Below are positions 1 through 16,363 of a stretch of 64,000 nucleotides of DNA, one piece after another (within the stretch, counting starts at the first letter, position 1; each line of letters begins with the position of its first letter). The translations under genes and the position numbers were made by a program. The stretch comes from a virus. The stretch spans positions 32,001 to 96,000 of IMG/VR virus record IMGVR_UViG_3300022745_000628; one strand, 5' to 3'. The notes under the pieces were generated by a model. It saw only the letters and a program-made list of their open reading frames with translations, ran no database searches and was not told where the DNA came from.

Positions 1-2
1 TT

Positions 3-131
3 ACACGGGCTTCGCAACATAAACGTCCTCGTATGTTGGTGAAATTACACCAGACTGTGATGCACGGAATAATTACTTCGCTTATCGAGAAACAAGTGGA
101 TATAGCCTTTATCGTCAATGTGGCCAGGTGA
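3..131 (+). CDS. 3' end of an ORF entering the window, probably the preceding array member
   Basis: Frame 3 is open from base 3 to TGA at 129-131, 3 nt before the ATG at 135, with the same tight packing as the array. Confidence 0.4.
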   Translation, partial: TRASQHKRPRMLVKLHQTVMHGIITSLIEKQVDIAFIVNVAR

Positions 132-134
132 TTT

Positions 135-419
135 ATGTATCAAACCAACTCAGAACCAATGACGCTTAACGTGAAAATGTGGTTATCGCTCGCGCCTAGC
201 CCGCCAACTGCCCAAACATTTAACCTCTATATGCATACACCATCGGCGTACTATTTTTGCAGACACCCGCAATCCGAAGAGCACGGATACGAAATTTTAC
301 GATTGTGGTGTGAAACCCATATATTCTTACTACACAAGTTAGATCCGTTAGCTAAAGGTCATGTTACCTGGCTTATACCGCTTCCAAAGTATTTCCGAAG
401 ATATGCCAAGTGGGGTTAA
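135..419 (+). CDS. NxxMW-family small protein
   Basis: LNVKMWLSL. Confidence 0.8.
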   Translation: MYQTNSEPMTLNVKMWLSLAPSPPTAQTFNLYMHTPSAYYFCRHPQSEEHGYEILRLWCETHIFLLHKLDPLAKGHVTWLIPLPKYFRRYAKWG

Positions 420-633
420 TGACGCCATGTGGCGTAAACTAGACATGCATACCGAACACTGTAATGGCCATATTAGTCAGCCGTGGCCAGCGTGGTGCGT
501 TATGGCCGCCCAACTTGTATACACAGGGTTAGAGTTCGCAACCATTTTAGCGCTTATTCGAAATAACCATAATAACGCACTTTTTCCACCGCAGGTACGG
601 AGAATTATAACTGATGTCATATATAAGCCATAG
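403..633 (+). CDS. NxxMW-family small protein (start moved from 361 to ATG 403)
   Basis: MPSGVNDAMWRKL; overlaps the previous stop. Confidence 0.75.
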   Translation: MPSGVNDAMWRKLDMHTEHCNGHISQPWPAWCVMAAQLVYTGLEFATILALIRNNHNNALFPPQVRRIITDVIYKP

Positions 634-850
634 AATGTGGGCACGGCTGGCAATAGATAGAGATTTACGTTTCCAAATAGCTTGCCCTAGTAACGTCTGG
701 ATAAATACTCGCGCTTTCCCAAAGCACACACCACTGCTGCACAAAGTATGTACCCCACTCACCACACTTAATTCATTCGACGTTTTTTGGCACGCGCGCA
801 CGGTAGAGCACGCCGTTTTTAGCGCAATCGACTTCAGTTATCTAGCTTAG
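614..850 (+). CDS. NxxMW-family small protein
   Basis: ISHRMWARL; 20-nt overlap. Confidence 0.8.
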   Translation: MSYISHRMWARLAIDRDLRFQIACPSNVWINTRAFPKHTPLLHKVCTPLTTLNSFDVFWHARTVEHAVFSAIDFSYLA

Positions 851-862
851 GGAGCCGGCTGT

Positions 863-1162
863 ATGCCTAAATTGAAGAAAAATGCGGTGAGCGCACTTAA
901 TCGAGATATGTGGGCAAAATTGGAGATCCCTATTGCACACATACGCAGCCCGTTTGATAACAGCCCTGATTTAGCAGGTTATATTATTCTGCACAAAGAC
1001 TTAATGAGGCCTACTAATGATTGGGCAGCTGCAAAAATAAACATATTTTGGTCAAGTTCTTTTTCGGATGTAATAATCCTGCTTCGGGCAGCAGTAAATA
1101 GTACTCGGGATTGTACCTATCCATTGGAGTCCGGAGTGTTGCATGACGCTGTTAGAAACTAG
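863..1162 (+). CDS. NxxMW-family small protein
   Basis: LNRDMWAKL; GGGAG upstream. Confidence 0.8.
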   Translation: MPKLKKNAVSALNRDMWAKLEIPIAHIRSPFDNSPDLAGYIILHKDLMRPTNDWAAAKINIFWSSSFSDVIILLRAAVNSTRDCTYPLESGVLHDAVRN

Positions 1163-1163
1163 T

Positions 1164-1421
1164 ATGCCAGATAGTAATGTGCACCAGTTAATGTGGAAGA
1201 AGTTGTTAATCGGAGAATCCAACGGGCTCGCGTACGGTCCCGCTAACATAGTGTACAACGGTATTTTTCCTAAAGGTTTCAACAACGTTAGGTTAGATAT
1301 GCTTCACATAGTTACTAACTATTTATACCTGTCGTCACGAATTAGTCGCAGTGTGTACACGGAATTACGCCAAGCGGTACGTCTGAGAAATCCTTTGCGA
1401 GATTCACGAGGAGATGAATGA
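1164..1421 (+). CDS. NxxMW-family small protein (ATG 1164 preferred to 1143)
   Basis: VHQLMWKKL. Confidence 0.75.
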   Translation: MPDSNVHQLMWKKLLIGESNGLAYGPANIVYNGIFPKGFNNVRLDMLHIVTNYLYLSSRISRSVYTELRQAVRLRNPLRDSRGDE

Positions 1422-1696
1422 GCGGCTTAAATAAACAAATGTGGCGACAGCTATACTTGGATAAAAAACTCTTAAAAGATAGCACTCTCGCAGGCGCTGT
1501 TCCGAATGGACGTAGTTTTAGGCCGGACTATATCCGCGGGTACACCGGTGCGGTACTAAAGCACCACATGCCCGATAGATTACGAGATAACGTAAAAATG
1601 ACACATACGGTGTCGCTACCTATTCGCGGTGCCATATTTTCCAACTTCAACGCTGTATTCAGAAAGTTAGCTTTTGATGTTGATCACTTCTCATGA
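1418..1696 (+). CDS. NxxMW-family small protein
   Basis: LNKQMWRQL; ATGA overlap, GAGGAG upstream. Confidence 0.85.
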   Translation: MSGLNKQMWRQLYLDKKLLKDSTLAGAVPNGRSFRPDYIRGYTGAVLKHHMPDRLRDNVKMTHTVSLPIRGAIFSNFNAVFRKLAFDVDHFS

Positions 1697-2024
1697 TTTT
1701 TCTAGCAGATCTACCGGCGTTGCGTATGCGATGTGGTTTAAATTAATATTCGCAGACAAGCCGTGTGATCCTAACGAGGCGAGTTACATACGACCACAAA
1801 ATATTAGCAAGGTTGGCCCGTTGGAACTTGCTGGGCCGGATATGTCGGAATTCGAGATACTCCCATATTTGCACGATGTATGCAGCCAAACTGTAGCTGA
1901 TTACCTTATTTGCATAGACGATTACACCTTGACGTACATGCGTACGGCTATCCAAGACATAGAATTTCGACTAGAACACGTCCAGTTAGAAATGGCAAGC
2001 GCTGTGTGCTGTGATAAAGATTAA
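1674..2024 (+). CDS. NxxMW-family small protein
   Basis: VAYAMWFKL. Confidence 0.7.
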   Translation: MMLITSHDFSSRSTGVAYAMWFKLIFADKPCDPNEASYIRPQNISKVGPLELAGPDMSEFEILPYLHDVCSQTVADYLICIDDYTLTYMRTAIQDIEFRLEHVQLEMASAVCCDKD

Positions 2025-2405
2025 ATGCGTAAGATGCCGTACAATTTCCTGTTAACTCTGGCGGATCAGCTAGATAGCGCACTTGCGTTTCTAGGCTTGT
2101 CCGGTTGGGTGCGACAGCCTATCAATATTCGAATGCAACTGAAGCTTCAACATAGGTATGTAAGCGAGGTATGGGATGCTTGGGCGCAACGCCGATTGTA
2201 CAATCCATTAGAGATGCCGGGCTGGATATATCCCAGATATGATCCTTGCCATATGCTACCGCGAGCTATTTCTGCGCGACAGCATGAAGCGCTTACGCAG
2301 TTAAAAATTAATTGGATGCGCAGCCTAATGTTGTTAGAAGTTGCGTTTATGATGCAGTTGCGACTGCGATTATTCACAAAATTAAGGAACTTAGGCTGTG
2401 CGTGA
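2025..2405 (+). CDS. NxxMW-family variant
   Basis: INIRMQLKL (W to Q); start uncertain. Confidence 0.6.
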   Translation: MRKMPYNFLLTLADQLDSALAFLGLSGWVRQPINIRMQLKLQHRYVSEVWDAWAQRRLYNPLEMPGWIYPRYDPCHMLPRAISARQHEALTQLKINWMRSLMLLEVAFMMQLRLRLFTKLRNLGCA

Positions 2406-2622
2406 CAATCCTGTCGGTAATCAGATGTCGAAAAAATGCTTGGATGCGAGCCGCGCGGTGTACGCTGTGCCGTACGTGGCGCATAATAAAATCCATTGGT
2501 GTGATGGACATTTGACAAATGTTGCGTGTGTGTATGGCACCACTGACTTGCAGATCATTGAGCATATCCACAACGTTACCGTGGCCAGGTACATTAAATG
2601 GAGGCAGGTTGATGTCGTTTAA
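2398..2622 (+). CDS. Degenerate array member
   Basis: GNQMSKKCL is a weak motif match; fills the gap with overlaps on both sides. Confidence 0.5.
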   Translation: MRDNPVGNQMSKKCLDASRAVYAVPYVAHNKIHWCDGHLTNVACVYGTTDLQIIEHIHNVTVARYIKWRQVDVV

Positions 2623-2869
2623 GCTTATTAACCTGTTAATGTGGTGGAAACTTGCGGGGGGTACCACTGCGGAAGGCCCTAAAAATATATGCGCTGCCGC
2701 AGGTGCAACTATTCGTACGCAGCTTAAGATCGCGTTATCAGATACGTACGTGACTGCTTATACCGTTACTGGCCTACGAGACGCACACACTCGGAGCAGG
2801 GTACTTCAGGAAACTATTTATGATGTGTGCGATCAAATTGCAGATCAGTGGAATATCAACGAATGTTAA
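2612..2869 (+). CDS. NxxMW-family small protein (start moved from 2519 to ATG 2612)
   Basis: MSFKLINLLMWWKLA. Confidence 0.8.
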   Translation: MSFKLINLLMWWKLAGGTTAEGPKNICAAAGATIRTQLKIALSDTYVTAYTVTGLRDAHTRSRVLQETIYDVCDQIADQWNINEC

Positions 2870-2972
2870 ATTCTGCAATGCTGTACAAAGCCGCTAGTTA
2901 TTACGGTATCGCGTTAAATGTGCACGGTTATTATTTAGACCGGAACAAGCTTAACGATGATGAGAATAGTTA

Positions 2973-3000
2973 TCAAAACGATAGTATTTCATCGTTTTGA
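2973..3000 (-). ncRNA. Hairpin, likely part of the TnpB omega-RNA scaffold
   Basis: Perfect 10-bp stem TCAAAACGAT (2973-2982)/ATCGTTTTGA (2991-3000) overlapping the tnpB 3' end. Confidence 0.5.
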
Positions 3001-4070
3001 GTCCGATTGTCCGAGCGACTATAAACTGCTCGGTTGAGGATATTGACGGCCGCGTTTGTATCCGCGTCCGTTTCGTACCCACAAGAAACACACCGATAAG
3101 CCAGGCCTACCCTGGAAGATCTATCGATGTTTCCACACCTGGAACAAGTTTGCGAGGTGTAAGCGGCAGGAACATCCTGTACGCCCACACCCTTAGCCGC
3201 GCACTTGTCTTTGATCTTTTGCAATGTCTTGGAATAAACCCACGACGCCATTTTATTGGCGAATCGCCTGGACATTGTTCGAGAGGCTCGGGTGCCGCGC
3301 TTAACGTTTTTAAGCGCTTCAAGCACTACGTAAGTAGGCTGCTCTGCCGCCAGCATCTGATTTACAGCCTTGCCGACAAGGTTGTCTCGTTGCTGCATGG
3401 TGCGCTGGCGGTTTACAGACCCTCGTTTTTGTCTTGCTAGCTTTTCGTAAACCCGTTCTAGCTCTTGCCCATAAATATTGCCGGTAGAAGTAGCGAGTAA
3501 ACGCTTGTAACCGCAATCCACGCCTACTGGTTTATCGCCAGGCGAAGTAGTCGCAGCTACTTCTTTTTCAAAGCAAACATCTAGATAAAATCTGTTACCA
3601 ACTTGCCGCAGTCTGGCGGACTTACTTAGCTGCCAACCGTCTGTAACAAACGCGTTGAAGTGCTTGTGTTTGTGCGTAGGCAGTGCCAGTTTAATCCCCC
3701 TCCCTAGTGAAGCCAGCCTGACCCAGAAATCGAACGAAGTAGTTTGAGCGTTTCTGTCGAAGGTTACAAATCGGCTGTCTAAATTGATCACAGATCGGCG
3801 AAACACAGGTTTACTTGTGCATCGCCCCCGCGATAATCTAGCTTTCGCGGATTTCACGATCTCGGAAGCTTGCTTACCTAAGCATTGCTGCAGCCTTGCG
3901 GATAGCCAACTATCTACTTTTTGCGTTACAAACTTTACCTTAGGAGCCTCCCAAAGTAAGTCGATGTAAAGATTCACTACGCGAACGGCTTCTACCATAA
4001 CTTCGGCTAACGCAGTCTTTTTGCCCGCGTTGCTGTACGCCAAATTGAGTTGGCAACGTCTAATCTCCAT
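2973..4070 (-). CDS. tnpB: TnpB RNA-guided nuclease (IS607-associated), 365 aa
   Basis: RuvC motifs VGVDCG, VVLEAL and DADTNAAVNI; zinc finger CSRCG...CVSCG. Confidence 0.93.
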   Translation of the reverse strand: MEIRRCQLNLAYSNAGKKTALAEVMVEAVRVVNLYIDLLWEAPKVKFVTQKVDSWLSARLQQCLGKQASEIVKSAKARLSRGRCTSKPVFRRSVINLDSRFVTFDRNAQTTSFDFWVRLASLGRGIKLALPTHKHKHFNAFVTDGWQLSKSARLRQVGNRFYLDVCFEKEVAATTSPGDKPVGVDCGYKRLLATSTGNIYGQELERVYEKLARQKRGSVNRQRTMQQRDNLVGKAVNQMLAAEQPTYVVLEALKNVKRGTRASRTMSRRFANKMASWVYSKTLQKIKDKCAAKGVGVQDVPAAYTSQTCSRCGNIDRSSRVGLAYRCVSCGYETDADTNAAVNILNRAVYSRSDNRTQNDEILSF

Positions 4071-4617
4071 GTTGCAACTCCTGTATCAATTTTTCTGTGT
4101 TACGTTGCGTCCTACGACGCCCATAAAGGCGAGCGCAGAAACTGGTGACAATGGCCACAAAATCTTGCATTAGGTCGCTTTTGTCGTCCATCGCTGGGTT
4201 TATGACTACAAACTCACAAGCTGGTTTTGCTGCTACCAGCAAGTTAAAACCAAATCGCGTCAGCCGGTCCTTATGCTCTATCACAATCCTGGCAACTGTA
4301 TCGTCTCGCAAAATCTTTAGTAACTTTTTACGATCGTCATTTAGTCCGCTTCCGATCTCCGTAACAATGTCTGAGACTATCCAACCTTTGGCAGCGCAAA
4401 AGCTAGCTACGCGTTCGGCCTGGGTTGTCAGCTTGCTTTTGTTTTGAGCAGAGCTCACGCGCGCGTAAACAATCGTCTTGCCAACTATTGCGGCATCTTC
4501 TATACACACGGTACCAGTTGGCAGCCTATACGCCCCAGGTATTTTTCCTGCCTTGAATTGCTTCCACGCGGTTTGGTAAGTAATGCCGTGTTGTTTTGCG
4601 TAATCTCGTAATCTCAT
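4060..4617 (-). CDS. tnpA: IS607-type serine recombinase with N-terminal HTH
   Basis: N-terminal HTH (YAKQHGITYQTAWKQF), catalytic YARVSS, EIGSGLN and IEHKDRLTRFGF. Confidence 0.95.
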   Translation of the reverse strand: MRLRDYAKQHGITYQTAWKQFKAGKIPGAYRLPTGTVCIEDAAIVGKTIVYARVSSAQNKSKLTTQAERVASFCAAKGWIVSDIVTEIGSGLNDDRKKLLKILRDDTVARIVIEHKDRLTRFGFNLLVAAKPACEFVVINPAMDDKSDLMQDFVAIVTSFCARLYGRRRTQRNTEKLIQELQHGD

Positions 4618-4623
4618 GTTTTT

Positions 4624-4632
4624 ATTATAGCA
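4624..4632 (-). promoter_or_regulatory. Extended -10 promoter (TGcTATAAT) for a probably leaderless tnpA transcript
   Basis: Minus strand reads TGCTATAAT, then AAAAAC, then the tnpA ATG. Confidence 0.55.
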
Positions 4633-4786
4633 AAGGAATACAAAAGACTATGCCTTATTCAAAAGAATTTCAATACCTTCTCAACGTCGGCTGTCCATGA
4701 CGTTGCGTTTGAGCTACATATTAAAGAACAGCAACGTATATTGTTTTTATTGCTTGACAAGCAGTTGCGCGGCACAGGAGTTAAAA

Positions 4787-5023
4787 TTGAGTTTTAATAT
4801 TAAAATGTGGTTACGCCTTGTGATATTTCCAATACATAAGTTTCGGCGTCGCGAGCCACATGACGGGTTGTATGCTGGGGTCGTAACACCAGAATTTCGC
4901 ATAATGCTGGATCAGGGAATGGCAATAGCCCACATACATTCAAAAGTACATATGTTGCAGTCTATGCCTGTGGAGCTCCCTGTACATCATGTAATCGAGG
5001 AAATCGTTTATGACAGAGCTTAA
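4787..5023 (+). CDS. NxxMW-family small protein (TTG start 4787)
   Basis: AGGAG 6 nt upstream; FNIKMWLRL ... LYAG. Confidence 0.8.
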   Translation: MSFNIKMWLRLVIFPIHKFRRREPHDGLYAGVVTPEFRIMLDQGMAIAHIHSKVHMLQSMPVELPVHHVIEEIVYDRA

Positions 5024-5261
5024 AGAAATGGAAGAGTGGTGGTCTGTAAACAAGCTCATGTGGGACAGACTAGCGGCAGCAGCAATAATACGCGAGCGAC
5101 CAGCGGACATACGGTACGCTGGCGAAGCACGCGCTTTCTTTGCTAAGCTGTCGCATCAAGCGTATAAAATATCAGGTACGTATGAGGCCAGATTTCGAAA
5201 TATGTCTGGGCAGATCGCCGTATATTATGTAATCTCGGAAATTGTCCATGTCAAAACATAG
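5010..5261 (+). CDS. NxxMW-family, 238-nt core unit 1
   Basis: VNKLMWDRLA ... PADIRYAG. Confidence 0.9.
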   Translation: MTELKEMEEWWSVNKLMWDRLAAAAIIRERPADIRYAGEARAFFAKLSHQAYKISGTYEARFRNMSGQIAVYYVISEIVHVKT

Positions 5262-5499
5262 CGAACAGTTAGTCAGATTGTCAATAAACAAGCTCATGTG
5301 GGATAAGTTAGCTGTAGCAGCGTCTGAGTACGAGAGTCCGAGTAATTTCTGTTACGCCGGTGGCATGGACGCTTTAGTAATTAACATGTCGCTGTCCCAC
5401 TATGCCGTATTATTATCCTACGCTGATAAACATAAACATCAGCCAATGTTTATCGGCGTGCAGCGGTTAATCGTGAGAATTGTCGATGCCAAAACATAG
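5242..5499 (+). CDS. NxxMW-family, core unit 2
   Basis: INKLMWDKLA ... PSNFCYAG. Confidence 0.9.
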   Translation: MSMSKHSEQLVRLSINKLMWDKLAVAASEYESPSNFCYAGGMDALVINMSLSHYAVLLSYADKHKHQPMFIGVQRLIVRIVDAKT

Positions 5500-5734
5500 A
5501 GAACTTTCAATGAAATTAGCAGTAAACGAACTCATGTGGGATAGGTTAGCCGTTACAGCATCTGAGTACGAGCGGCTGTCTGAGTTCTGTTATGCGGGCG
5601 GTGTTAGCCGTTTACTAGCTAACATATCGATCCAACAATATAAAGGATTACTAGCTCATATAGAGAATCTTAGACATACCTCCACGCATCTTATCTTGCA
5701 GGTACTTATCCAGAAAACTGTACGGCAAAGCTAG
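5480..5734 (+). CDS. NxxMW-family, core unit 3
   Basis: VNELMWDRLA ... FCYAG. Confidence 0.9.
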   Translation: MSMPKHRELSMKLAVNELMWDRLAVTASEYERLSEFCYAGGVSRLLANISIQQYKGLLAHIENLRHTSTHLILQVLIQKTVRQS

Positions 5735-5744
5735 AGAACTTTCA

Positions 5745-5972
5745 ATGAAATTAACAGTAAATAAGCTCATGTGGGATAGGTTAGCGATTGAGAGCATTGA
5801 TTTCCAGCCAGCGCATAATACCGCATACTCCGGTAGCAGAGAGGCTTTAGTAGCTAAAATGCAATATAAGCAGTATACTTACTTCATGGAGTGGATACCT
5901 ATGGTGCAGTATCACCTAAGTTTGGTTGTAGTGGATAGGGCAGTCAGGCGCATATTGTATGCCAGAACATAG
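5745..5972 (+). CDS. NxxMW-family, core unit 4
   Basis: VNKLMWDRLA ... PAHNTAYSG. Confidence 0.9.
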   Translation: MKLTVNKLMWDRLAIESIDFQPAHNTAYSGSREALVAKMQYKQYTYFMEWIPMVQYHLSLVVVDRAVRRILYART

Positions 5973-6210
5973 CAAACTTTCAATTCGCCGGCCAGTAAAC
6001 AAGCTCATGTGGGATAAGCTAGCGGTTAAGTCAAATAGTGATGAGTATCCGAGTGCCGTACAGTACGCTGGGGATACATCCCCTTTAGTAAATAAGATAA
6101 CGTGGCAAGGTTATAACACAGTGATGGCATATGTAAGCTTGATGAGATACAGTTCCGCATATTACGCAGTATATGATTTAATAGAGGAAATTGTTTATGA
6201 CAAAAGCTAA
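5959..6210 (+). CDS. NxxMW-family, core unit 5
   Basis: VNKLMWDKLA ... PSAVQYAG. Confidence 0.9.
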   Translation: MPEHSKLSIRRPVNKLMWDKLAVKSNSDEYPSAVQYAGDTSPLVNKITWQGYNTVMAYVSLMRYSSAYYAVYDLIEEIVYDKS

Positions 6211-6448
6211 CAGGCGTCCAATCAAATTACCAGTAAACCGGCTTATGTGGGATAGCTTAGCGATTAAAGCAGATGAGTACGAGAATCCGGCTCATGTCTG
6301 TTATGCCGGCAGTAAGGACGCTTTAGTAGCTAAAGTAACGCTGGCGCACTATCACGGATTACTAGACTATGCATATAATACGCAAAATATTTCATCGTCT
6401 ATTAGCCTGCAGCAATTAATCAGGAGAACTGCGAATGTCAAGCCATAA
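6191..6448 (+). CDS. NxxMW-family, core unit 6
   Basis: VNRLMWDSLA ... PAHVCYAG. Confidence 0.9.
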   Translation: MFMTKANRRPIKLPVNRLMWDSLAIKADEYENPAHVCYAGSKDALVAKVTLAHYHGLLDYAYNTQNISSSISLQQLIRRTANVKP

Positions 6449-6686
6449 CAAACATCCAATCAAATTACCAGTAAACCGGCTTATGTGGGATAGTCTAGCA
6501 GTCGAGCCCATTGATTTCCAGATACCGCACGATACATGTTACGCTGGCAGTACGACTGGTTTATTAACTAAGATGCCGAAGGCGCAATATAACGTATTAC
6601 TAGACATGGTAGCTGTTATGCCGTATCCGCAGACTTCTCTTGTCGTGTATAGTCTATTAAAGAGAATTTGGCATGTCGGAGTATAA
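6435..6686 (+). CDS. NxxMW-family, core unit 7
   Basis: VNRLMWDSLA ... PHDTCYAG. Confidence 0.9.
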   Translation: MSSHNKHPIKLPVNRLMWDSLAVEPIDFQIPHDTCYAGSTTGLLTKMPKAQYNVLLDMVAVMPYPQTSLVVYSLLKRIWHVGV

Positions 6687-6930
6687 CAAACATCCAATCA
6701 AATTACCAATAAATAAGCTTATGTGGAATAAGCTAGCGGCCAATTCATTAGAGAAGGAGCTACCGAATCACACCGTTTGCGCTGGCGATATAGGCGCTTT
6801 CATGCCTGACAGGCCATCGTCGTCGTCGGAAGATTACCAAGCGCTATACTATGCCGCTAGATTGTCAAATGTATTTGTGGACTTCGTTGCGCATGCGGCA
6901 ATCGGTGAAATTGTTTATGGCAAAAATTAA
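6673..6930 (+). CDS. NxxMW-family, core unit 8
   Basis: INKLMWNKLA ... PNHTVCAG. Confidence 0.9.
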   Translation: MSEYNKHPIKLPINKLMWNKLAANSLEKELPNHTVCAGDIGAFMPDRPSSSSEDYQALYYAARLSNVFVDFVAHAAIGEIVYGKN

Positions 6931-7177
6931 TAAATTTCTAGTGAAATTACCAGTAAACAAGCTCATGTGGGATAGGTTGTCGGCTGACGCGTTAGAGAGT
7001 GAGCTGCCTGGTAACTACTATTACTCCGGCCGATTTAACAGCGCCATGTATAGCCGGCAATGGCAGGCATGCGGCATAATACTAGCCGTTGCAGAGGATC
7101 CGCGGTATCTTCGACAGTCTAACGAGTCTAACGGCGTGCACAAAATAATCTTGGAAATTGTGCATGCCCGCACATAA
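6917..7177 (+). CDS. NxxMW-family, core unit 9 (ATG 6917)
   Basis: VNKLMWDRLS ... PGNYYYSG. Confidence 0.9.
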   Translation: MAKINKFLVKLPVNKLMWDRLSADALESELPGNYYYSGRFNSAMYSRQWQACGIILAVAEDPRYLRQSNESNGVHKIILEIVHART

Positions 7178-7430
7178 CGAACATCCGGTCAAATTGACGG
7201 TGAATAAGCTTATGTGGTACGCACTGACGGATGCGCCCATTTATTATGAAATAATGATTGACACTTGTTACGCTGGTAGCGCCGGGCCTTTCTTAGATGT
7301 CATGCGATGGGTTCAATATAAAACACTGCTGGACCACGTCAATAGAACGATGCCAGCCGATAGTTTGCAACTGACGCTGCTAAGCAGCGCTACCGTCCCA
7401 CTTCTAAAACTAGACCGGTTTCAAAAATGA
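7158..7430 (+). CDS. NxxMW-family, core unit 10
   Basis: VNKLMWYALT ... TCYAG. Confidence 0.9.
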   Translation: MCMPAHNEHPVKLTVNKLMWYALTDAPIYYEIMIDTCYAGSAGPFLDVMRWVQYKTLLDHVNRTMPADSLQLTLLSSATVPLLKLDRFQK

Positions 7431-7645
7431 TAAATCACAAAATGTACAGACTATTAGCGCTAGCACAGCCAAACTTCGAGCAGCCTTCCAATAGCGTATT
7501 CGTTGGCTCGGTAGCCGCACTATTAAGCCGTGTGGAGCACCATACCATTGTGTTTAAATGTACTGCAGTGGCGGAGCTTTGTAAGCTGCATATATCAATT
7601 TCAAAAGAACTTTGGCTATTGCAAGGTAAATATTTTGACTATTAA
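7427..7645 (+). CDS. NxxMW-family variant
   Basis: INHKMYRLL ... PSNSVFVG. Confidence 0.8.
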   Translation: MINHKMYRLLALAQPNFEQPSNSVFVGSVAALLSRVEHHTIVFKCTAVAELCKLHISISKELWLLQGKYFDY

Positions 7646-7904
7646 CAATCAAATGTGGGACAAATTGCAAATTACAGGCCACACAGTCTCGCTGTTTCCA
7701 GGTGATGCAGTGTATATCGGTTTAAAAAGCTATTTATATGCGAATATGCAAGTAATTGGTGCCTATACAGATTGGTTCCAGTTCACACACTTTTGGTCAA
7801 AAGTGTACATGCGTCATAACGATATTATCCGGCACAACCCGGAGCAGGATTTACCACTCCCTCTTTGGTACGAGCAAAATGACATCTACATCCCAGAATG
7901 GTAA
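7635..7904 (+). CDS. NxxMW-family small protein (TTG 7635)
   Basis: INNQMWDKL ... PGDAVYIG. Confidence 0.8.
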   Translation: MTINNQMWDKLQITGHTVSLFPGDAVYIGLKSYLYANMQVIGAYTDWFQFTHFWSKVYMRHNDIIRHNPEQDLPLPLWYEQNDIYIPEW

Positions 7905-8190
7905 TGTACCAGCGCCTATAACGGTAAATGAGAAAATGTGGGATCGCACAATCCGCGGGTCTTATATTATTACGACTAACCGCTATTTCAACAAGCCCGA
8001 TGACAATTGTTTTGATGGAGATCTGGTAATGGTCGTGTCGAAAGTCCGTGCACTTATCGACACCAATAACAAGATGTGTGCTGCGTTCGAGATCCAGTGG
8101 CGCTACCAGCGAGCCGCATACATGGCATCGATCGCTCAAGCTAACACGTTAGGCTGTGAGATAGACGAATACATTCCACTACTTTGGTAA
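7879..8190 (+). CDS. NxxMW-family small protein (ATG 7879)
   Basis: VNEKMWDRT ... PDDNCFDG. Confidence 0.8.
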   Translation: MTSTSQNGNVPAPITVNEKMWDRTIRGSYIITTNRYFNKPDDNCFDGDLVMVVSKVRALIDTNNKMCAAFEIQWRYQRAAYMASIAQANTLGCEIDEYIPLLW

Positions 8191-8201
8191 CGGGCTAGTT
8201 A

Positions 8202-8522
8202 ATGCAAACAACGCAACACAATGTTGAAATTTTGACTCCGAATAATAAAATGTGGGACAAGCTGCTGTATGCGACAGCCGGGAGAGTAGCCAAAATACCC
8301 GCGAATTTAGAACTGTATACTCCGGGCAATATATGGGGTACGTATATCGCGCACTGGCATATTAACCACCTGTTTAGCTGTAAAATGGCTGTGGTGCAAC
8401 TGGACGAAGTCGTAGAAGTGTTGTGTGGCGGGGATATGCGCATACGCGCGTACGTAAGTACATATTCGTACATCGATTTTGTTATACGTACCGCGATATA
8501 CGCACATACAGACAAATTTTAA
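8202..8522 (+). CDS. NxxMW-family small protein
   Basis: PNNKMWDKL. Confidence 0.8.
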   Translation: MQTTQHNVEILTPNNKMWDKLLYATAGRVAKIPANLELYTPGNIWGTYIAHWHINHLFSCKMAVVQLDEVVEVLCGGDMRIRAYVSTYSYIDFVIRTAIYAHTDKF

Positions 8523-8525
8523 ATT

Positions 8526-8765
8526 ATGCTGCCAACCATAAATACTAAGATGTGGTGGACATTGTCGCCTAGTCACGGCCCTATTACGCGAGATATACAG
8601 ATAAATCGCGGCTTCTCGGTGGGTACCCCTGCATTGGCAGTTCGGATGCACATGCACCTCGATCAAAACATTAATATTTTTTACAGTTTGAATTATAAAT
8701 CTCCGTATAGTTCTGTGGAGTCGATCGTGCAAAGTATCGCTAAAAGAATGTGTGCTGACAGGTGA
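8526..8765 (+). CDS. NxxMW-family small protein
   Basis: INTKMWWTL. Confidence 0.8.
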   Translation: MLPTINTKMWWTLSPSHGPITRDIQINRGFSVGTPALAVRMHMHLDQNINIFYSLNYKSPYSSVESIVQSIAKRMCADR

Positions 8766-9031
8766 TTACAGGCAACAGTGTCAGCAAACGAATGTGGGAA
8801 AAATTAACAATACCCGGCTGGATTGCTGTCGGATGCATAGTTGCTCCACAAATAGGTGTTATGTCCGCGGATGGCGGATTGTTTAGCCGTGTACACGACA
8901 TATGTCCAGCGGGCGACGGCGCGCAATTTTGGTTGCAATCCGCGCCTCAGAATTTTATGGCGCATTTCATACGTAAAGAATTAGCGCACATCTGTATCGC
9001 CATCGCTATACAGAATAGCGGTCGCGCATGA
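8762..9031 (+). CDS. NxxMW-family small protein
   Basis: VSKRMWEKL; GTGA overlap. Confidence 0.8.
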   Translation: MITGNSVSKRMWEKLTIPGWIAVGCIVAPQIGVMSADGGLFSRVHDICPAGDGAQFWLQSAPQNFMAHFIRKELAHICIAIAIQNSGRA

Positions 9032-9273
9032 CTAACTATATCCCACTAAATATCCGGATGTGGCACAAGTTAAGTGGCGGGTATATTGCGGGTAGTTCGT
9101 TAAAATCCAGCTCGAAGTATGGCGGTATTTTGGATGCTCCACACGCAGGTATTTCGGTACAAGGCTACACCATGCACAATCTGTTTCTACACAACGCTTG
9201 CGAGGAAATAGCACACTTTAACTATGGTAACACAATTAGGCTATATAGCCTATTTGCGCACCTACTGTACTAG
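9028..9273 (+). CDS. NxxMW-family small protein
   Basis: LNIRMWHKL; ATGA overlap. Confidence 0.8.
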   Translation: MTNYIPLNIRMWHKLSGGYIAGSSLKSSSKYGGILDAPHAGISVQGYTMHNLFLHNACEEIAHFNYGNTIRLYSLFAHLLY

Positions 9274-9293
9274 TATGTCTGATCGGAGGTAAC

Positions 9294-9566
9294 GTGAATT
9301 CGACAATTGCAGTTAGCATGCATATGATAGCGATTGGGGCAAAAAATACTGCGGTTCCGACTAATGGAACCACATGGAGTATAGGCGCCTGGGAGGTGCT
9401 CAAGGCGTCGTACAATACATGCGGGGACGCCTATGGCAAGAGTAGTGTATTGACGCTACTACTAAATCCAATTGTTTATAGATGGCGTAATGTTGCGAAA
9501 AGTGTCTACATTCTTGAGATCATAGAGGCTGCCAAAATTTCAGAGGAGGTAGAAGTATGTTTATGA
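9294..9566 (+). CDS. Small protein in the array, motif barely recognisable
   Basis: GGAGG upstream of GTG; same size and packing; VSMHMIAI is only a weak match. Confidence 0.55.
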   Translation: MNSTIAVSMHMIAIGAKNTAVPTNGTTWSIGAWEVLKASYNTCGDAYGKSSVLTLLLNPIVYRWRNVAKSVYILEIIEAAKISEEVEVCL

Positions 9567-9817
9567 GAGACCTAATACAAATTCAAATATATCAAAAGCT
9601 TAGCGACGACCAAATCTGCCCGTCGCGAATAACACGTGAAACGCGGCTATTCCATCATGAACTATATCCGGCAATTAGGAAAACTGTCGGGACTAGGCTG
9701 GGTAGTTACGCTAGTTTTATGGATCACGCCCTTACCTTTGACGTGCAGGCAGACATACTGTCCGAGTTGTACAACCATTTGCCTAAATCGTGGGGAGATA
9801 GCGTTGTTACTAGCTGA
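9557..9817 (+). CDS. NxxMW-family variant
   Basis: IQIQIYQKL; GAGGAGG upstream. Confidence 0.65.
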   Translation: MFMRDLIQIQIYQKLSDDQICPSRITRETRLFHHELYPAIRKTVGTRLGSYASFMDHALTFDVQADILSELYNHLPKSWGDSVVTS

Positions 9818-10052
9818 TCAAATGTGGCATAAAATTAATCACGGTCGTATGAGCGGGCACGACATAAAGCCCGTTCATTTTGCAAGCATAGACTTGCGAG
9901 TGTGCGTGTTGCGGCAATTGGAGTACTCACACGCTATGTCCGATTGGATGCATGCTGCTGATGGGTTGCACAGCACCTTTACAGCAGTATCGCGCGCCAT
10001 GTACCGGCGAACCGCAACACTAACATATTTCAAACAATCGGTAAGAGTATGA
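9804..10052 (+). CDS. NxxMW-family small protein (TTG 9804)
   Basis: GGGGAG upstream; LADQMWHKI. Confidence 0.75.
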   Translation: MLLADQMWHKINHGRMSGHDIKPVHFASIDLRVCVLRQLEYSHAMSDWMHAADGLHSTFTAVSRAMYRRTATLTYFKQSVRV

Positions 10053-10270
10053 AAAACCTGGGAGATAGAACGATAGCCTGGCACATGCTGCGACTTACAG
10101 TTACCAGTGCGTATACCGAGTATATGCGTGTAGTAGAATCAAGCGCACTAGGGTTCTATTATTCAGATGTTGCGACTATAAAAAACATACATAGTTTTGC
10201 GTATAAAAATAAGCACCGCATGGAACAACCGGTGCTTCGTCGTATGGCGGAGTGTATTGCCAATGGTTAA
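10049..10270 (+). CDS. Degenerate array member
   Basis: IAWHMLRLT; ATGA overlap. Confidence 0.55.
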   Translation: MKNLGDRTIAWHMLRLTVTSAYTEYMRVVESSALGFYYSDVATIKNIHSFAYKNKHRMEQPVLRRMAECIANG

Positions 10271-10565
10271 ACGACGAATTAAATTGCGAAAAGGTATTCA
10301 CATTAACAAGCTACCTAATCGGAAAATGTGGTTAAGTCTGTGTCTACGCGCTACAATCAGGGATACGTCTTCCGATCAATACGCTGTCGACGGCTATTCA
10401 TACGCTGGTCCGCTGTGTTCTGAGCAATATCCACATGCGCTGTGGTTGGACGAAATGCTATGGATACAGCGCTGGCAGTTTGTTAATTACGACACTTTTT
10501 ACACTTTTACAAATCTCATAGAATATGACCATTTGCGGCTTATTGTAAAACGTTTACAAGGGTAG
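10263..10565 (+). CDS. NxxMW-family small protein (ATG 10263)
   Basis: PNRKMWLSL ... YSYAG. Confidence 0.8.
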   Translation: MVKRRIKLRKGIHINKLPNRKMWLSLCLRATIRDTSSDQYAVDGYSYAGPLCSEQYPHALWLDEMLWIQRWQFVNYDTFYTFTNLIEYDHLRLIVKRLQG

Positions 10566-10569
10566 TTAT

Positions 10570-10794
10570 ATGCTTAATCAAAAAATGTGGGCACTGCTGA
10601 GCTTAGACGGTTATGGCGGCGACGGGTCTCCATGCTATACATTTATGAATGTCAGAAAGCCTAGACGACTCTTTGCGCAGATAGAAGCATTTATTCTGCC
10701 TTGGTTTTTATTAAACAGACACAACAACTTACAGAACAAGCATATAGATAACGAAGTTACACATATTGCGAGTGACGCCATATGGAAAATATAG
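10570..10794 (+). CDS. NxxMW-family small protein
   Basis: LNQKMWALL. Confidence 0.8.
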   Translation: MLNQKMWALLSLDGYGGDGSPCYTFMNVRKPRRLFAQIEAFILPWFLLNRHNNLQNKHIDNEVTHIASDAIWKI

Positions 10795-10991
10795 CACGGC
10801 AGATGCAACCAGGCATAGACGGATTTGATAAGACTACATCCGCTCTGGTTGGAGCACCATTCGAAGAATGTGCGTGGATTTTACACTACGGAGTCAGAAC
10901 GCCATACAGTTGTTATCGAGAACTTGAAAAGGCGGTAACCGTTTTTTGTGACAAATTGGAGGCGGCACAATATGAACACCTCTGCGTTTAA
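10782..10991 (+). CDS. Degenerate array member
   Basis: IARQMQPGI is a weak match; overlapped packing. Confidence 0.55.
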   Translation: MENIARQMQPGIDGFDKTTSALVGAPFEECAWILHYGVRTPYSCYRELEKAVTVFCDKLEAAQYEHLCV

Positions 10992-11277
10992 AAAACCGCG
11001 CACGATACAACTTCAGATGTTGGAAAAGCTCGTATTAGACCATACAGATCCTCAGTTTTTGACTGGTCCTACGCATAACGGTTTTTTTGGTATCGGCGTA
11101 GCCCGCATAAACAATCGCGTATGGCCGTGCCGGTGGACATGCTGCTCCGAGCTTGCGTACTATATCAGAGGCACGTACGGTATGGAGGCAAAGTTGCGAT
11201 ATACAACGTTACTGTGCATAGACATAACAAGTATAGACAGTCTTTCTGGAGAATGGTGGCATGCAGCCGAAGCTTAA
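10972..11277 (+). CDS. NxxMW-family variant (ATG 10972)
   Basis: IQLQMLEKL; 20-nt overlap. Confidence 0.65.
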   Translation: MNTSAFKKPRTIQLQMLEKLVLDHTDPQFLTGPTHNGFFGIGVARINNRVWPCRWTCCSELAYYIRGTYGMEAKLRYTTLLCIDITSIDSLSGEWWHAAEA

Positions 11278-11515
11278 CGTATTGATGTGGAAAAAGATAG
11301 CATTGGTAAGGCCGGCACGTGCTGAAAAACCTAGTTTTGTGGTATACGCCGGAGTGTTTTTTGCTAATGAAATTGACGCAGACTCGATCATAGCGTGCGT
11401 AACCTATATGTGCGATATTGTTTTGGCATATGCGCTGGCAGGATACAAGCCGCATGGAGACGTCATCACGAACGTCTTTGTCAATTATACGGATGGGATA
11501 GACGTTGGGATATAA
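11261..11515 (+). CDS. NxxMW-family small protein
   Basis: LNVLMWKKI ... PSFVVYAG. Confidence 0.85.
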   Translation: MQPKLNVLMWKKIALVRPARAEKPSFVVYAGVFFANEIDADSIIACVTYMCDIVLAYALAGYKPHGDVITNVFVNYTDGIDVGI

Positions 11516-11801
11516 AACAAAATCGGGAGCTGTCATGATCAATCGTCAAATGTGGAACAAGCTTGCTTTTTTCGGAATTTGGCCAGGCGAACCTCCGAGT
11601 AGTGTGCAATACGTCGGCATGCCGACACCTTGTGTAGTTAAGTTTAGAAATGTGCGCGGCGCTGTGGTAAAAGATGACCACATACATGGAGCGCAATACT
11701 ACGCAGCGCAACTCGATCTACAGCAAGGCTCTTTAGAGGATAGCCTGCTATGGCACTTACACTCGCAAGTTGAATGGGTTATTACATATAAGAATGGGTA
11801 G
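11505..11801 (+). CDS. NxxMW-family small protein (ATG 11535 is an alternative start)
   Basis: INRQMWNKLA ... PSSVQYVG. Confidence 0.85.
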   Translation: MGYKTKSGAVMINRQMWNKLAFFGIWPGEPPSSVQYVGMPTPCVVKFRNVRGAVVKDDHIHGAQYYAAQLDLQQGSLEDSLLWHLHSQVEWVITYKNG

Positions 11802-11809
11802 CGGTAGCA

Positions 11810-12070
11810 ATGCTAAGAATCAATCTAAAAATGCAGGGTAAACTTGTAATGTTTCAAGAATCGCCGGGTCTTAATAGTGGGAATCGGCGGTACTACGGCT
11901 CGGCATATTGTTATATACTTCAAAATAACATGCTAAACAATCTCAGCACATTTAGTCAGTTGGACAATACGCTATTTAAAAGTAACTTCAAATTTAGCTC
12001 CACTACGCTCGCGCCGGACGTAGCCATTTCTAATATTGTGAGTCTCTCAGATGATAAATCAATCCATTAA
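11810..12070 (+). CDS. NxxMW-family variant
   Basis: INLKMQGKL ... RYYG. Confidence 0.75.
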   Translation: MLRINLKMQGKLVMFQESPGLNSGNRRYYGSAYCYILQNNMLNNLSTFSQLDNTLFKSNFKFSSTTLAPDVAISNIVSLSDDKSIH

Positions 12071-12329
12071 TAATAAAATGTGGGTTAAACTCGCGCTAGT
12101 AGTTACGCGTAATTACAACTATGCTGTAAATAACTGGCTATACGCAGGGCGCGCGCCGGCTTACATTTCCGACTGGATACACTATGACGCCTATTGTTAT
12201 ATTGTGCAAGTAACCAATACAATATTGCATTCGCATTCTCTGCATGTATCAGCTGCGCCAGAGGCTTACTTAAACATTACAGTACGCTTTTACCTGAATA
12301 GGAAATATAATGGTCACAGTAAATCGTGA
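12051..12329 (+). CDS. NxxMW-family small protein
   Basis: INNKMWVKLA ... LYAG; 20-nt overlap. Confidence 0.85.
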   Translation: MINQSINNKMWVKLALVVTRNYNYAVNNWLYAGRAPAYISDWIHYDAYCYIVQVTNTILHSHSLHVSAAPEAYLNITVRFYLNRKYNGHSKS

Positions 12330-12489
12330 AATGGAGGCAAAACTTGCCGAGGGGAAATCGATGATTAGCATCCGAATGCTCTGCGTTGGGGCCATACACT
12401 ATAAACTTACTGTTGAAGTGCCAGACCACAATATAAAAGACATCATCACGCACATTGTGCACCATACCTACTCGAGAACAAATGCGTAG
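12310..12489 (+). CDS. NxxMW-family variant, 59 aa, missing from the ORF track
   Basis: Hand translation MVTVNREMEAKLAEG...YSRTNA*; 20-nt overlap with the previous gene. Confidence 0.7.
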   Translation: MVTVNREMEAKLAEGKSMISIRMLCVGAIHYKLTVEVPDHNIKDIITHIVHHTYSRTNA

Positions 12490-12799
12490 TATTTTGCAGC
12501 AGATGTGGGATAAGCTATGTATATGGTCAGCGGTTTATAGCTCAGACTTAGATAATTCAATGGGTAATCATATGTATAGTGGCGTGACGCGTCCATACTA
12601 TAACGTAGCCAATTGTTCCGCGCGCCATAGCGCTGACTTGGAAATAGTTCTGAAACATCGCTCTGCGATGTATGACTGTTTTGCAGCTCAAAGAAACTCG
12701 CCATTACGCACCAGCGCTGTACATGGAATAATAGGAAAATATGACTATGCCGCGATCTCTAGACGGAAGGTTAAAATAAAGTCCCGTGTTGACGCTTAA
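12482..12799 (+). CDS. NxxMW-family small protein (ATG 12482; GTG 12455 alternative)
   Basis: ILQQMWDKL ... MYSG. Confidence 0.8.
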   Translation: MRSILQQMWDKLCIWSAVYSSDLDNSMGNHMYSGVTRPYYNVANCSARHSADLEIVLKHRSAMYDCFAAQRNSPLRTSAVHGIIGKYDYAAISRRKVKIKSRVDA

Positions 12800-13022
12800 T
12801 CAACGAATGTGGAAGACGCTTGCGTTTGGAGGCAGCCTAATGGTTCACTATCCTAGTGATATACGGTACCTAGGCTACAGCTGGTATACTTTTGAAATAA
12901 GAAAAGTCGTAGATAGGGAGGTAGTATACTCCATACTGTATCCGTGGCCTTTAAAATTACATATCAGCGTAGCAGCGGCGTTCGCCAATTCGGCATATCT
13001 TGAGGAGTATCGTTGGTACTAA
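12786..13022 (+). CDS. NxxMW-family small protein, last in the array
   Basis: LNQRMWKTLA ... PSDIRYLG. Confidence 0.85.
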   Translation: MLTLNQRMWKTLAFGGSLMVHYPSDIRYLGYSWYTFEIRKVVDREVVYSILYPWPLKLHISVAAAFANSAYLEEYRWY

Positions 13023-13048
13023 AGTACCGAGTTATATATGCGAAGCAC

Positions 13049-13082
13049 CTAAATTTAAGCCATAAATGCGTCATATATAGTG
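13049..13082 (+). promoter_or_regulatory. Bipartite motif copy 1, putative phage promoter
   Basis: CTAAAT-N13-GCGTCATATATAGTG. Confidence 0.7.
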
Positions 13083-13172
13083 TAGGAGGTCGGTATTGCT
13101 GTGCGGCATACCGATATGTGGCAGCGCTAGTGCTGTGCGAATATATAGGTCTTTACTTTTAGGAGTTCCATA

Positions 13173-13646
13173 GTGAACACATGTACCGAGTTTGAGCGCA
13201 ATGTGCAACTAATCAGTTTGAAACTGATCCCGATCATTTCGAAACAGGCAAGCATAACCTGCTTGGCAGATGTGACCAGTCTGGCCATAGTTATGTTGAA
13301 CAACATAAACGAAGCCGTTGAGCAGTGCCCACGGTTAAACCGAGACACGGTTATTACACTGGCCGTCCAAATTTTCGATATCGAGCTCAATCGTCCGATC
13401 GCTGAAGGCGATGATGCCGAAGGTATGGAATGGATGGCTCTGGCGAAACACAGCGCGGTCGAAGCGCTGAAAATCTGTTCGGAGCTGTCAAACCGCATGC
13501 AAGCGGCTATGGACAGAGATATTACGCAACGTAAAGTGCAACGTACTTTATACGTATCGCATTACATCGGAAAGGCGCTTCGCGGTGTCCGCGGTGCGAC
13601 AACTCGAATTTGGAATATCCGATCGCGCGCACGCGCGCACGCGTAA
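13173..13646 (+). CDS. Hypothetical protein, predicted helical
   Basis: 157-aa ORF downstream of motif copy 1; GGAG upstream. Confidence 0.7.
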   Translation: MNTCTEFERNVQLISLKLIPIISKQASITCLADVTSLAIVMLNNINEAVEQCPRLNRDTVITLAVQIFDIELNRPIAEGDDAEGMEWMALAKHSAVEALKICSELSNRMQAAMDRDITQRKVQRTLYVSHYIGKALRGVRGATTRIWNIRSRARAHA

Positions 13647-13667
13647 AACGTATGTGCTGAACGGGTA

Positions 13668-14021
13668 ACAACAGCATGTCGTCAAGCGCTGTTGTCAGTG
13701 CATATGTCGGGTGGCGTGTGATATTGTTGCTAGTTTAGCACGGTACTCACACGCCACTTTAATACACTCTGGGTCGCAGTATCCAGAGCACGCGAGCGGG
13801 TAATGATTAACTTGAGACCGCAACTCAAGTCCCCGCTCGCTTCTTTTTAACTCGTACTGCTGTAGCCAACTGCGTTGCGGTACTGGCTACGATGTGGCAT
13901 GAGGCGCTGGGTGTTACCAGGTAATTACTTATTGTTTTCCATCCTATAAGTGATATCGGGAAAAACAACTGCGCATTTTGGCATGCGCAGTTGTCGGTAG
14001 CGCCCAGCGCTTTTTTTTTTT
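13668..14021 (+). ncRNA. Candidate structured RNA(s), two multi-stem units each ending in a U-tract
   Basis: Stems at 13711-21/13747-57, 13792-800/13832-40 enclosing 13810-16/13824-30, 13862-68/13884-90, and 13904-11/14003-10 enclosing 13965-75/13984-94. Confidence 0.55.
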
Positions 14022-14122
14022 GATTTGACCAACTGTTTAAAAGCGAGGATCGTTTTGACAACTTTTTATATGTCGTTTTGCATCATTCCAGCTAGTGCTC
14101 GGCAGCTGGCCATCACACAAGT

Positions 14123-15180: not shown

Positions 15181-15242
15181 TGTTAGTTACGCACGTTTAT
15201 TCGTAATAGTTTTGTTCTTCATATTTAACGGGAGATGTCGCG

Positions 15243-16153: not shown

Positions 16154-16363
16154 TTTGCACCTCGTAGTTGGCCGTCGTATAGGCTTATTTTTGAAAAGGT
16201 AGGGTATTCAACGAAAGTGAGTGCGCCGCCTGCGGGGTAGCGGCAATAACTGTTTGCGCGGACAACCGCCAAAGCATTGTCGCATTCCTCAAAGATTGCG
16301 ACATTAGCGACTATACCATTTGTGCTAATGATGTCGTACAGCAGACACTTTAATCTGTCTGAG

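Follow-up and report, generated by a model that had tools for sequence, protein, structure and literature searches.

Ten overlapping small genes with a 238-nt period within a large paralogue array of an uncultured freshwater phage

The locus described here raises the question of how ten neighbouring reading frames in a phage genome have kept a nearly exact spacing of 238 nt despite strong divergence of their sequences. It lies in a window of 64,000 nt, the whole stretch that was analysed, from an uncultured freshwater phage of 194 kb, a distant relative of Salmonella phage Arash. The original prediction had proposed a recent tandem amplification of one unit, followed by substitution-driven diversification with strong constraint against indels on a fixed helical scaffold with a variable surface. 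We favor, with a probability of roughly 60%, the reading that these are ten real genes of 75-88 residues, members of a lineage-specific family, which arose in a burst from one unit and then changed by substitution under selection on frame, length, and the N-terminal module.

Period, junctions, and assembly of the core

All ten predicted starts of the shared motif were recovered exactly (Table 1), and the nine spacings between them (238, 238, 235, 238, 238, 238, 238, 244, and 247 nt) were reproduced without change. The motif, given as V-N-K-L-M-W-D for every unit, is exact in four of the ten, while the others stay within [VI]-N-[KER]-L-M-W-[DNY]. The reading frame advances by one with each unit (2,0,1,2,0,1,2,0,1,2), all nine intervals being 1 mod 3. 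Changes in length among the core units are confined to -3, +6, and +9 nt, all in frame, as expected for substitution-driven divergence with constrained indels, and six of the ten units have 67 codons from M-W to the stop codon, with 66 found in one further unit. The proposed autocorrelation analysis of nucleotides 5010-7430 placed the top peak at lag 238 (identity 0.453 vs a mean of 0.256, z 12.7), with further peaks at lag 476 (z 8.7) and 711/714. Neither the flanking parts of the array nor a control region gave a peak above z ~4, the lag-238 peak being found only in the core. TRF did not detect the core array because the copies are too diverged. The core consists of ten genes lying back to back and overlapping; with the two looser flanking units the count rises to twelve.

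Table 1. Position of the paralogue array, its core units, and neighboring features in the window
Feature	Position	Strand	Motif start	Remarks
Whole array	-14,269 to 13,019	+		genome 17,731-45,019
Array, part inside window	135..13022	+		small overlapping or abutting genes
IS607-type insertion	2973..4617	-		inside array; serine recombinase 4060-4617, TnpB 2973-4070
Flanking semi-regular unit	4697..5023	+		M-W at 4805, 253 nt before unit 1; core-like C-terminus; HMM E 1e-14
Core unit 1	5010..5261	+	5046	83 aa
Core unit 2	5248..5499	+	5284	83 aa counted from ATG; 14-nt overlap with unit 1
Core unit 3	5486..5734	+	5522	82 aa; 14-nt overlap
Core unit 4	5745..5972	+	5757	75 aa; junction ATG lost, downstream ATG used; spacing 235
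Core unit 5	5959..6210	+	5995	83 aa; unit used for folding
Core unit 6	6197..6448	+	6233	83 aa; 38-39-nt exact run in common with unit 7
Core unit 7	6435..6686	+	6471	83 aa
Core unit 8	6673..6930	+	6709	85 aa; in-frame +6 nt insertion
Core unit 9	6917..7177	+	6953	86 aa; in-frame +9 nt insertion
Core unit 10	7164..7430	+	7200	88 aa; C-terminus diverged
Flanking semi-regular unit	7427..7645	+		M-Y replaces M-W; 230 nt after unit 10; HMM E 1.7e-13

The period follows from the arrangement of the genes, as a 252-nt ORF less a constant 14-nt out-of-frame (+1) overlap gives 238 nt. The overlap is dual-coded, the end of each gene (codons for E-I-V-Y/H-x-K-x) doubling as the ATG and opening codons of the gene that follows. 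At eight of the nine junctions the ATG lies 14 nt ahead of the upstream stop and is accompanied by a purine-rich, Shine-Dalgarno-like element directly upstream of this start codon. The role of the fixed overlap in setting the period had been missed in the original prediction. The ten core genes are probably translationally coupled. The junction RNAs are unstructured; they have no fold in common and lack a CsrA-type GGA hairpin (z between -0.75 and +1.2, apart from one at -3.4), and sigma-70-like promoters and terminators were not in excess inside the array.

An assembly artefact had been named as a possible source of the periodicity. Contigs of a second sample cover 4631-6246 and 6717-8882 with zero differences, and Logan contigs break only at the 38-39-nt exact repeat common to units 6 and 7. 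The contigs of four freshwater metagenome runs are identical over 1-13200, with neither variants nor joints, at a level of resolution where contigs drop rare variants. With the same sequence in four runs, the array is not an artefact of assembly, nor is hypervariability visible in it. No RNA run was among the sequencing runs listed.

Constraint and divergence among the units

The coding frames of the core contain no stop codon, compared with 74 and 77 in the other two frames, and the chance that ten shuffled C-terminal parts would all stay open is 3e-14. The codon-position composition of the core is protein-like, with alanine enriched and glycine depleted relative to random expectation. On the evidence of open frames, selection, and start signals, the core ORFs are real genes.

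In the ungapped register the 5' 85 nt of the units are 63% identical and the 3' 153 nt 44% identical, where 25.5% is expected by chance. The C-terminal halves, described earlier as barely alignable but constant in length, do retain their length and open frame; they are weakly alignable, yet homologous. Substitution frequencies differ along the unit. The N-terminal part gave pS 0.63 and pN 0.34, the motif pS 0.66 and pN 0.18 (pN/pS ~0.27), and the C-terminal part pS 0.57 and pN 0.555 (pN/pS ~1), against a shuffled-column expectation of pS 0.78 and pN 0.73. By these measures, the N-terminal module is under purifying selection. The synonymous sites are near saturation (pS 0.57-0.63 vs 0.78 shuffled), so that the claim of a recent amplification is not supported. 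In the dN/dS analysis, YN00 fails in the C-terminal part because of saturation; the ratio of ~1 in that part was found without the frequent compensating indels that would mark neutral decay. Nor was diversifying selection upheld, since in addition to this ratio the closest pairs have pN > pS only at P = 0.07-0.3 (bootstrap). A pN/pS of ~1 in the C-terminal part is equally expected from weak constraint. Hydrophobic columns vary less than others (r = -0.37).

The family, its predicted structure, and the search for relatives

The core is part of an array of 27 kb (genome 17.7-45.0 kb) that occupies ~14% of the genome and holds at least 57 M-W-bearing units. The family has ~60-70 members, of which the core is a less diverged sub-family. 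An iterated HMM collected 40 members, every one of them on the + strand and within 20.3-45.0 kb, and the array (14% of the genome) contains 62 copies of ATGTGG vs 42 elsewhere. The family signature is an N-terminal N-x-x-M-W-x-K-L helix, joined in many members by P-x5-Y-x-G; in the core this module reads N-K-L-M-W-D-K-L-A, followed by P-x5-Y-A-G. Protein identity is 32% between core units, 18% between core and other units, and 17.6% among the others. Identity within the core does not decay with distance, and in the tree the core units cluster on short terminal branches, with monophyly of the core unresolved (three changes on the tree). Identity, lack of decay, branch lengths, and clustering together support tandem amplification of a single unit. 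The outer units had been called older and less regular; they are more diverged and irregular, with spacings of 208-325.

The array also contains an embedded metallophosphoesterase gene. The IS607-type element that interrupts it (Resolvase 1.4e-15, Cas12f1-like_TNB 4.2e-20) sits there without visible harm, and therefore the continuity of the array, at least, is dispensable.

AlphaFold2 models of core unit 5 (pLDDT 75.6) place helices at residues 13-21, 41-46, and 49-82, and an outer unit (pLDDT 61) was modeled with N-terminal and C-terminal helices as in the core unit. The pTM of 0.26-0.28 is low, so the tertiary fold is uncertain. In the predicted build of a unit, a short motif helix leads through a loop into a long C-terminal helix. 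These models agree with the helical part of the proposed scaffold with a variable surface, but the helical periodicity of the hydrophobicity profile was not significant (846/5000 shuffles). Foldseek against PDB and BFVD returned nothing below E = 2.5, and no ESM Atlas score exceeded 0.79. The strand-like K-L-P-V run before the helix recalls ribbon-helix-helix proteins; there was no RHH Pfam match, and the monomer model is coil at residues 1-12.

No relative of the family was found outside this phage in ~15 billion public proteins, PHROGs, Pfam, and PDB. Megablast and tblastn against 50,697 phage records gave no relative of the array, and a search for related loci with the unit alignment, or with the RNA polymerase as a single protein, gave nothing. 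Loci reached via the embedded metallophosphoesterase and via the gene downstream of the array held no family member, nor did Arash, Vibrio phage D181, or four large IMG/VR records. PHROG and Pfam profiles, including the PHROG groups of other phage arrays, showed no recurring family among 39 members, and a profile search of PDB sequences gave no match. Two candidate likenesses were rejected as chance. The peptide T-M-N-K-L-L-W-K in the RNA polymerase is internal (residue 338). The N-terminal part of the FGE-sulfatase domain PF03781, reached via the metagenomic protein P0018, has a similar V-T-R-Q-M-W-A-D-L, P-S-x-x-x-Y, and V-N-x-I-T-W over 49 columns; hhalign gave a probability of 37%, none of the 39 members matches PF03781 even at E = 10, and the E-value of the P0018 match is inflated by four near-identical repeats. 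FGE-sulfatase domains also differ from the array proteins in length and predicted fold.

Origin and possible role of the array

In the reading that we favor, one unit was amplified in a burst, most likely because the conserved first 60-80 nt at the 5' end allowed unequal crossing-over. Substitutions then separated the copies to the point of near saturation at synonymous sites, while selection retained the reading frame, the length, the N-terminal module, and the hydrophobic positions and allowed the C-terminal 45 residues to change about as fast as silent sites. These points are read directly from the sequence, whereas the function of the proteins is inferred.

The 5' module and the period might instead be maintained by concerted evolution, through gene conversion or unequal exchange, and not mainly by selection on the proteins. 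Units 6 and 7, which are neighbours, have an exact run of 39 nt in common, other pairs share 20-26 nt around the motif, and a 593-bp ENA contig encodes a chimera that joins the head of unit 9 to the body of unit 5. However, synonymous differences in the motif are as high as elsewhere, the outer units keep the motif as amino acids with different codons, and the chimera, which the assembler may have created in error at a shared word of 25 nt, has no counterpart in the joint-free contigs of the four runs. We consider this explanation improbable, though it is the best of the competing ones.

T4-type IP genes combine a common N-terminal capsid-targeting sequence with unrelated or fast-evolving bodies in a plastic locus; their targeting peptide lies at the extreme N-terminus and closes with a prohead-protease site. 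The units resemble them in joining a short constant N-terminal element to fast-evolving, diverse bodies, and could likewise be internal proteins: the N-terminal module would load them into the prohead, and once ejected together with the DNA they would serve in anti-restriction or take-over. Eight of the ten core units have an [AS]-x-[ED] tripeptide after the motif, and the relative Arash carries RNA polymerase and other enzymes in its virions (PMC10585845). Against this, the motif is a predicted internal helix at residues 13-21 and not the extreme N-terminus, no larger phage protein carries it, the outer units do not conserve the acidic tripeptide, and the copy number is tens of times higher than that of the IP genes. 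A role of this kind appears less likely still.

The remaining explanations are very unlikely. Duplicated DNA could fill the headful with functionless ORFs that decay neutrally, in keeping with a C-terminal pN/pS of ~1, the orphan status of the family, and the proposal of tandem duplication as a route to genome expansion (Hua et al., PMC5646251), but the absence of stops, the exclusively in-frame indels, the low pN/pS of the motif, and the protein-like codon-position composition all speak against it. Slightly less probable again is active substitution-only hypermutation of the DGR type, which would account for the kept length of units whose 3' 153 nt have diverged by 56% at the nucleotide level; the genome, of which 7% is missing, has no reverse transcriptase (no RVT_1), there is no template/variable repeat pair, divergence is even across the three codon positions, and the contigs of four runs are identical. 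Precursor peptides of the RiPP type, which in many copies combine a conserved leader with a hypervariable core, can be set aside with equal confidence, given cores of 45-60 residues that are predicted helical and not Cys-, Ser-, or Thr-rich and a genome (again with 7% missing) without a radical-SAM, LanM/LanC-like, or YcaO gene.

Large phages repeatedly give 10% or more of their genome to arrays of tiny orphan paralogues, and to our knowledge no function has been assigned to such arrays by anyone. The array described here belongs to this already known kind, the tandem small-gene paralogue arrays of large phages. Jumbo phages G and 121Q carry tandem arrays of >30 similar genes (Hua et al. 2017, PMC5646251), and the present array shares with them the same-strand tandem duplication of one small gene over a sizeable share of a large phage genome. 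Unlike those arrays, it is built from a different orphan family with far more diverged copies (17-32% identity), includes a less diverged core whose period is locked and whose overlaps are fixed at 14 nt, and reaches ~60-70 copies within a genome that falls short of the 200-kb jumbo threshold. Polymorphic toxin loci carry tandem arrays of immunity genes, SUKH and others (Zhang et al. 2011, PMC3113570), where diverged paralogues are likewise read as a repertoire of specific binders; compared with those arrays, the phage family has no sequence or fold relation, and it lies in a lytic-type phage with no toxin nearby.

The proteins are predicted to be small and helical, each pairing a constant N-terminal module for docking or folding with a C-terminal helix that varies. 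Together they may form a repertoire of binders at work within the infected cell, serving host take-over or counter-defence, each copy being kept for its own specificity. More specifically, and only tentatively, the array could be a phage-encoded repertoire of modular binders in which a constant N-terminal docking helix is joined to a fast-diversifying C-terminal helix, unequal crossing-over at the 5' module adds and removes copies, and the core is the latest expansion.

The array is a useful case, being unusually large and having its constant and variable parts clearly separated. In the less diverged, period-locked block the homology of every codon is unambiguous, which provides a clean natural data set on the positions that are free to vary, and the fixed 14-nt dual-coded junction is an example of a gene overlap that locks the unit length of an array. 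The ten core proteins make a compact related set for pull-down or toxicity screens. If the array is indeed a repertoire of modular binders, it would parallel, in a virus, the variant-gene families of cells, with each copy countering a different host factor.

Register and assembly of the core

The ten overlapping small genes of the core (units 1-10) lie in strict register. The coordinates and spacings of the original prediction were exact for all ten units on re-checking, and the reading frame advances by +1 at each successive unit as claimed. Autocorrelation of window 5010-7430 gave a top lag of 238 (identity 0.453 against a mean of 0.256, z 12.7) with further peaks at lags 476 and 711/714; no comparable peak was found in the parts of the array on either side of the core or in a control region. 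The period of 238 nt results from the gene overlap, as each core ORF is 252 nt, stop included, and starts with an ATG that opens a 14-nt, +1-frame overlap with the ORF before it (252 - 14 = 238). In-register identity among the core units is 63% over the 5′ 85 nt and 44% over the 3′ 153 nt, with 25.5% expected by chance. The C-terminal halves, described as barely alignable, are thus weakly alignable; they do keep their length. Units 2, 4, and 6 resemble one another over a 29-nt segment (76-83% alike; window 5357-5385, 5830-5858, and 6306-6334; spacings 473 and 476). This may point to a higher-order repeat of two units, for which the protein identity matrix gives no clear confirmation.

An assembly artefact, the alternative raised with the original prediction, is excluded by further contigs. 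Second-sample contigs span window 4631-6246 and 6717-8882 with zero differences, Logan contigs break solely at a 38-39-nt exact run common to units 6 and 7, and a 197,548-bp contig from another assembly encodes the same proteins. In the protein encoded by a 593-bp ENA contig, the opening 19 residues are those of unit 9 and are followed by the body of unit 5, with the joint at a 25-nt word common to both; this contig could equally have arisen by natural recombination or as a chimera made by the assembler at that word. Together with the 39-nt run of units 6 and 7, it hints at exchange at the conserved 5′ segment of the units.

Coding constraint and divergence of the units

Decay was rejected and the units are real genes: the ten coding frames contain no stops, whereas the other two frames contain 74 and 77, the core intervals are 1 mod 3 in 9/9 cases, and codon-position composition is protein-like. 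The probability of ten shuffled C-terminal parts all remaining open is 3e-14, and in the variable bodies Ala is over-represented and Gly under-represented against random expectation. Length changes are limited to three deviations of -3, +6, and +9, in agreement with the predicted constraint against indels.

The proportions of silent and replacement differences (pS and pN) were 0.66 and 0.18 in the motif, the predicted N-terminal M-W helix of the family, 0.63 and 0.34 in the N-terminal 35 codons, and 0.57 and 0.555 in the C-terminal part; column-shuffled pairs gave expectations of 0.78 and 0.73. Silent sites in the motif differ freely, so gene conversion alone does not account for its conservation, and selection at the protein level maintains it. 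Homology persists in the C-terminal half, with pN/pS ~1; evidence for positive selection was not significant, the closest pairs having pN > pS only at P = 0.07-0.3. Of the two signs of neutral decay named beforehand, dN/dS near 1 was seen in the C-terminal part only, and frequent compensating indels were not seen. The amplification, predicted to be recent, is not so in absolute terms, since silent sites are near saturation and YN00 fails for the C-terminal part of the core units. A DGR-type mutator driving the C-terminal divergence is unlikely, as the genome encodes no reverse transcriptase, the divergence has no codon-position bias, and the array sequence is identical in four samples.

Extent and history of the family

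Core units are 32% identical to one another and 18% identical to other members, which share 17.6% among themselves. Identity inside the core does not decay with distance, the core units' terminal branches are short, and the core clusters in the tree (3 changes versus 9.0 for shuffled labels) without being resolved as a single clade. These observations agree with the proposed amplification of a single unit and fit one burst followed by independent divergence of the core units.

The array spans genome 17,731-45,019. Counting only units that have an exact M-W and stay open for 60 codons or more, it contains at least 57, variants being additional; an IS607-type element and two groups of genes from outside the family break it up. 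An iterated HMM search over the genome recovered 40 full-length members, 40/40 on the + strand, and no family member elsewhere in the phage genome. The family has no relative beyond this phage in the databases searched. Among 5.8 billion clusters, a word-indexed search retrieved the phage's own proteins only; among 1.84 billion representatives, an exhaustive profile search retrieved these, strain variants that are near-identical, and a single unrelated repeat protein of the FGE-sulfatase type. No match for the family came from PHROGs, Pfam, PDB sequences, or Foldseek. The FGE-sulfatase protein, a 1703-aa metagenomic protein not from this phage, carries E-V-T-R-Q-M-W-A-D-L then P-S-x-x-x-Y in each of its four FGE-sulfatase domains, and hhalign gave a probability of 37% against the family's N-terminal module. 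Kinship was rejected, as the match from the profile search does not hold up.

The IMG/VR record is 193,796 bp (estimated completeness 93%), of which the window covers bases 32,001-96,000, and the stretch is present in four freshwater metagenome runs from 2018. The nearest cultured relatives, Salmonella phage Arash and Vibrio phages D181, D148, and D69, are distant, at ~30% identity in RNA polymerase.

Coordinates of other genes and hairpins inside or downstream of the array
Feature	Coordinates	Strand	Location
IS607-type element (serine recombinase + TnpB)	window 2973-4617	-	inside array, between unit ending 2869 and unit starting near 4757
Two large ORFs, Hint/LAGLIDADG intein-endonuclease signatures	window 22001-24313, 25210-27006		downstream of core
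Fused RNA polymerase beta::beta'-N chain	window 32963-37444		downstream of core
Second TnpB, IS605 OrfB type	window 38450-39625		between both RNA polymerase chains
Separate beta'-C chain with intein (Hint domain)	window 40973-43822		downstream of core
G+C-rich strong hairpin with T tail	genome 20,275-20,298	+	~30 nt upstream of array block resuming at 20,326
G+C-rich strong hairpin with T tail	genome 26,515-26,540	+	~490 nt upstream of array block resuming at 27,026

Expression, structure, and possible roles

A purine-rich Shine-Dalgarno-like element (GAGGA, AGGAG, or GGTGA; weaker GGA or GAGA) lies 8-9 nt upstream of the junction ATG, within the preceding gene, and the last codons of the conserved C-terminal E-I-V-Y/H-x-K-x peptide are dual-coded with the next gene's ATG and first codons. 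Much of this peptide therefore doubles as translation signal for the gene that follows. Unit 4 has no junction ATG and starts 8 codons further downstream. The nine junction RNAs are no more structured than shuffles except before unit 10, where an 11-bp hairpin (window 7129-7179; -16.8 kcal/mol, z -3.4), absent at the other eight junctions, encloses a ribosome-site-like element. The array has no surplus of sigma-70-like promoters or of terminators, so the units are probably read from long transcripts via coupled translation. Genome 12,001-32,000 contains 26 sigma-70-like promoter matches, below the 39 +/- 6.6 of shuffles, a shortage consistent with transcription by the phage's own polymerase. 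The two T-tailed hairpins may be transcript boundaries.

AlphaFold2, given an alignment of 39 paralogues, predicted for a core unit (pLDDT 75.6, pTM 0.28) helices at 13-21 (the motif), 41-46 (short), and 49-82 (long), with Y-A-G in a loop. An outer unit (pLDDT 61) had the same N- and C-terminal helices and a poorly defined middle. The suggested fixed scaffold with a variable surface is plausible for the core units in light of these models, but weakly supported: hydrophobic columns are less variable (r = -0.37) while helical periodicity was not significant.

If other phage arrays are a guide, the simplest interpretation of function is that the units would form a repertoire of small helical proteins that act inside the cell and share an N-terminal module. 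A capsid-targeting role like that of T4 IP is possible. RiPP precursors are unlikely in a genome without a radical-SAM, LanC-like, or YcaO gene.

Phages G and 121Q carry tandem arrays of >30 similar genes ascribed to tandem duplication (Hua et al. 2017, PMC5646251), and the present array thus belongs to a kind already known from large phages. It stands out by its size, its orphan status, and its less diverged, period-locked block; since codons in that block are exactly homologous between units, it is well suited to evolutionary and experimental study.
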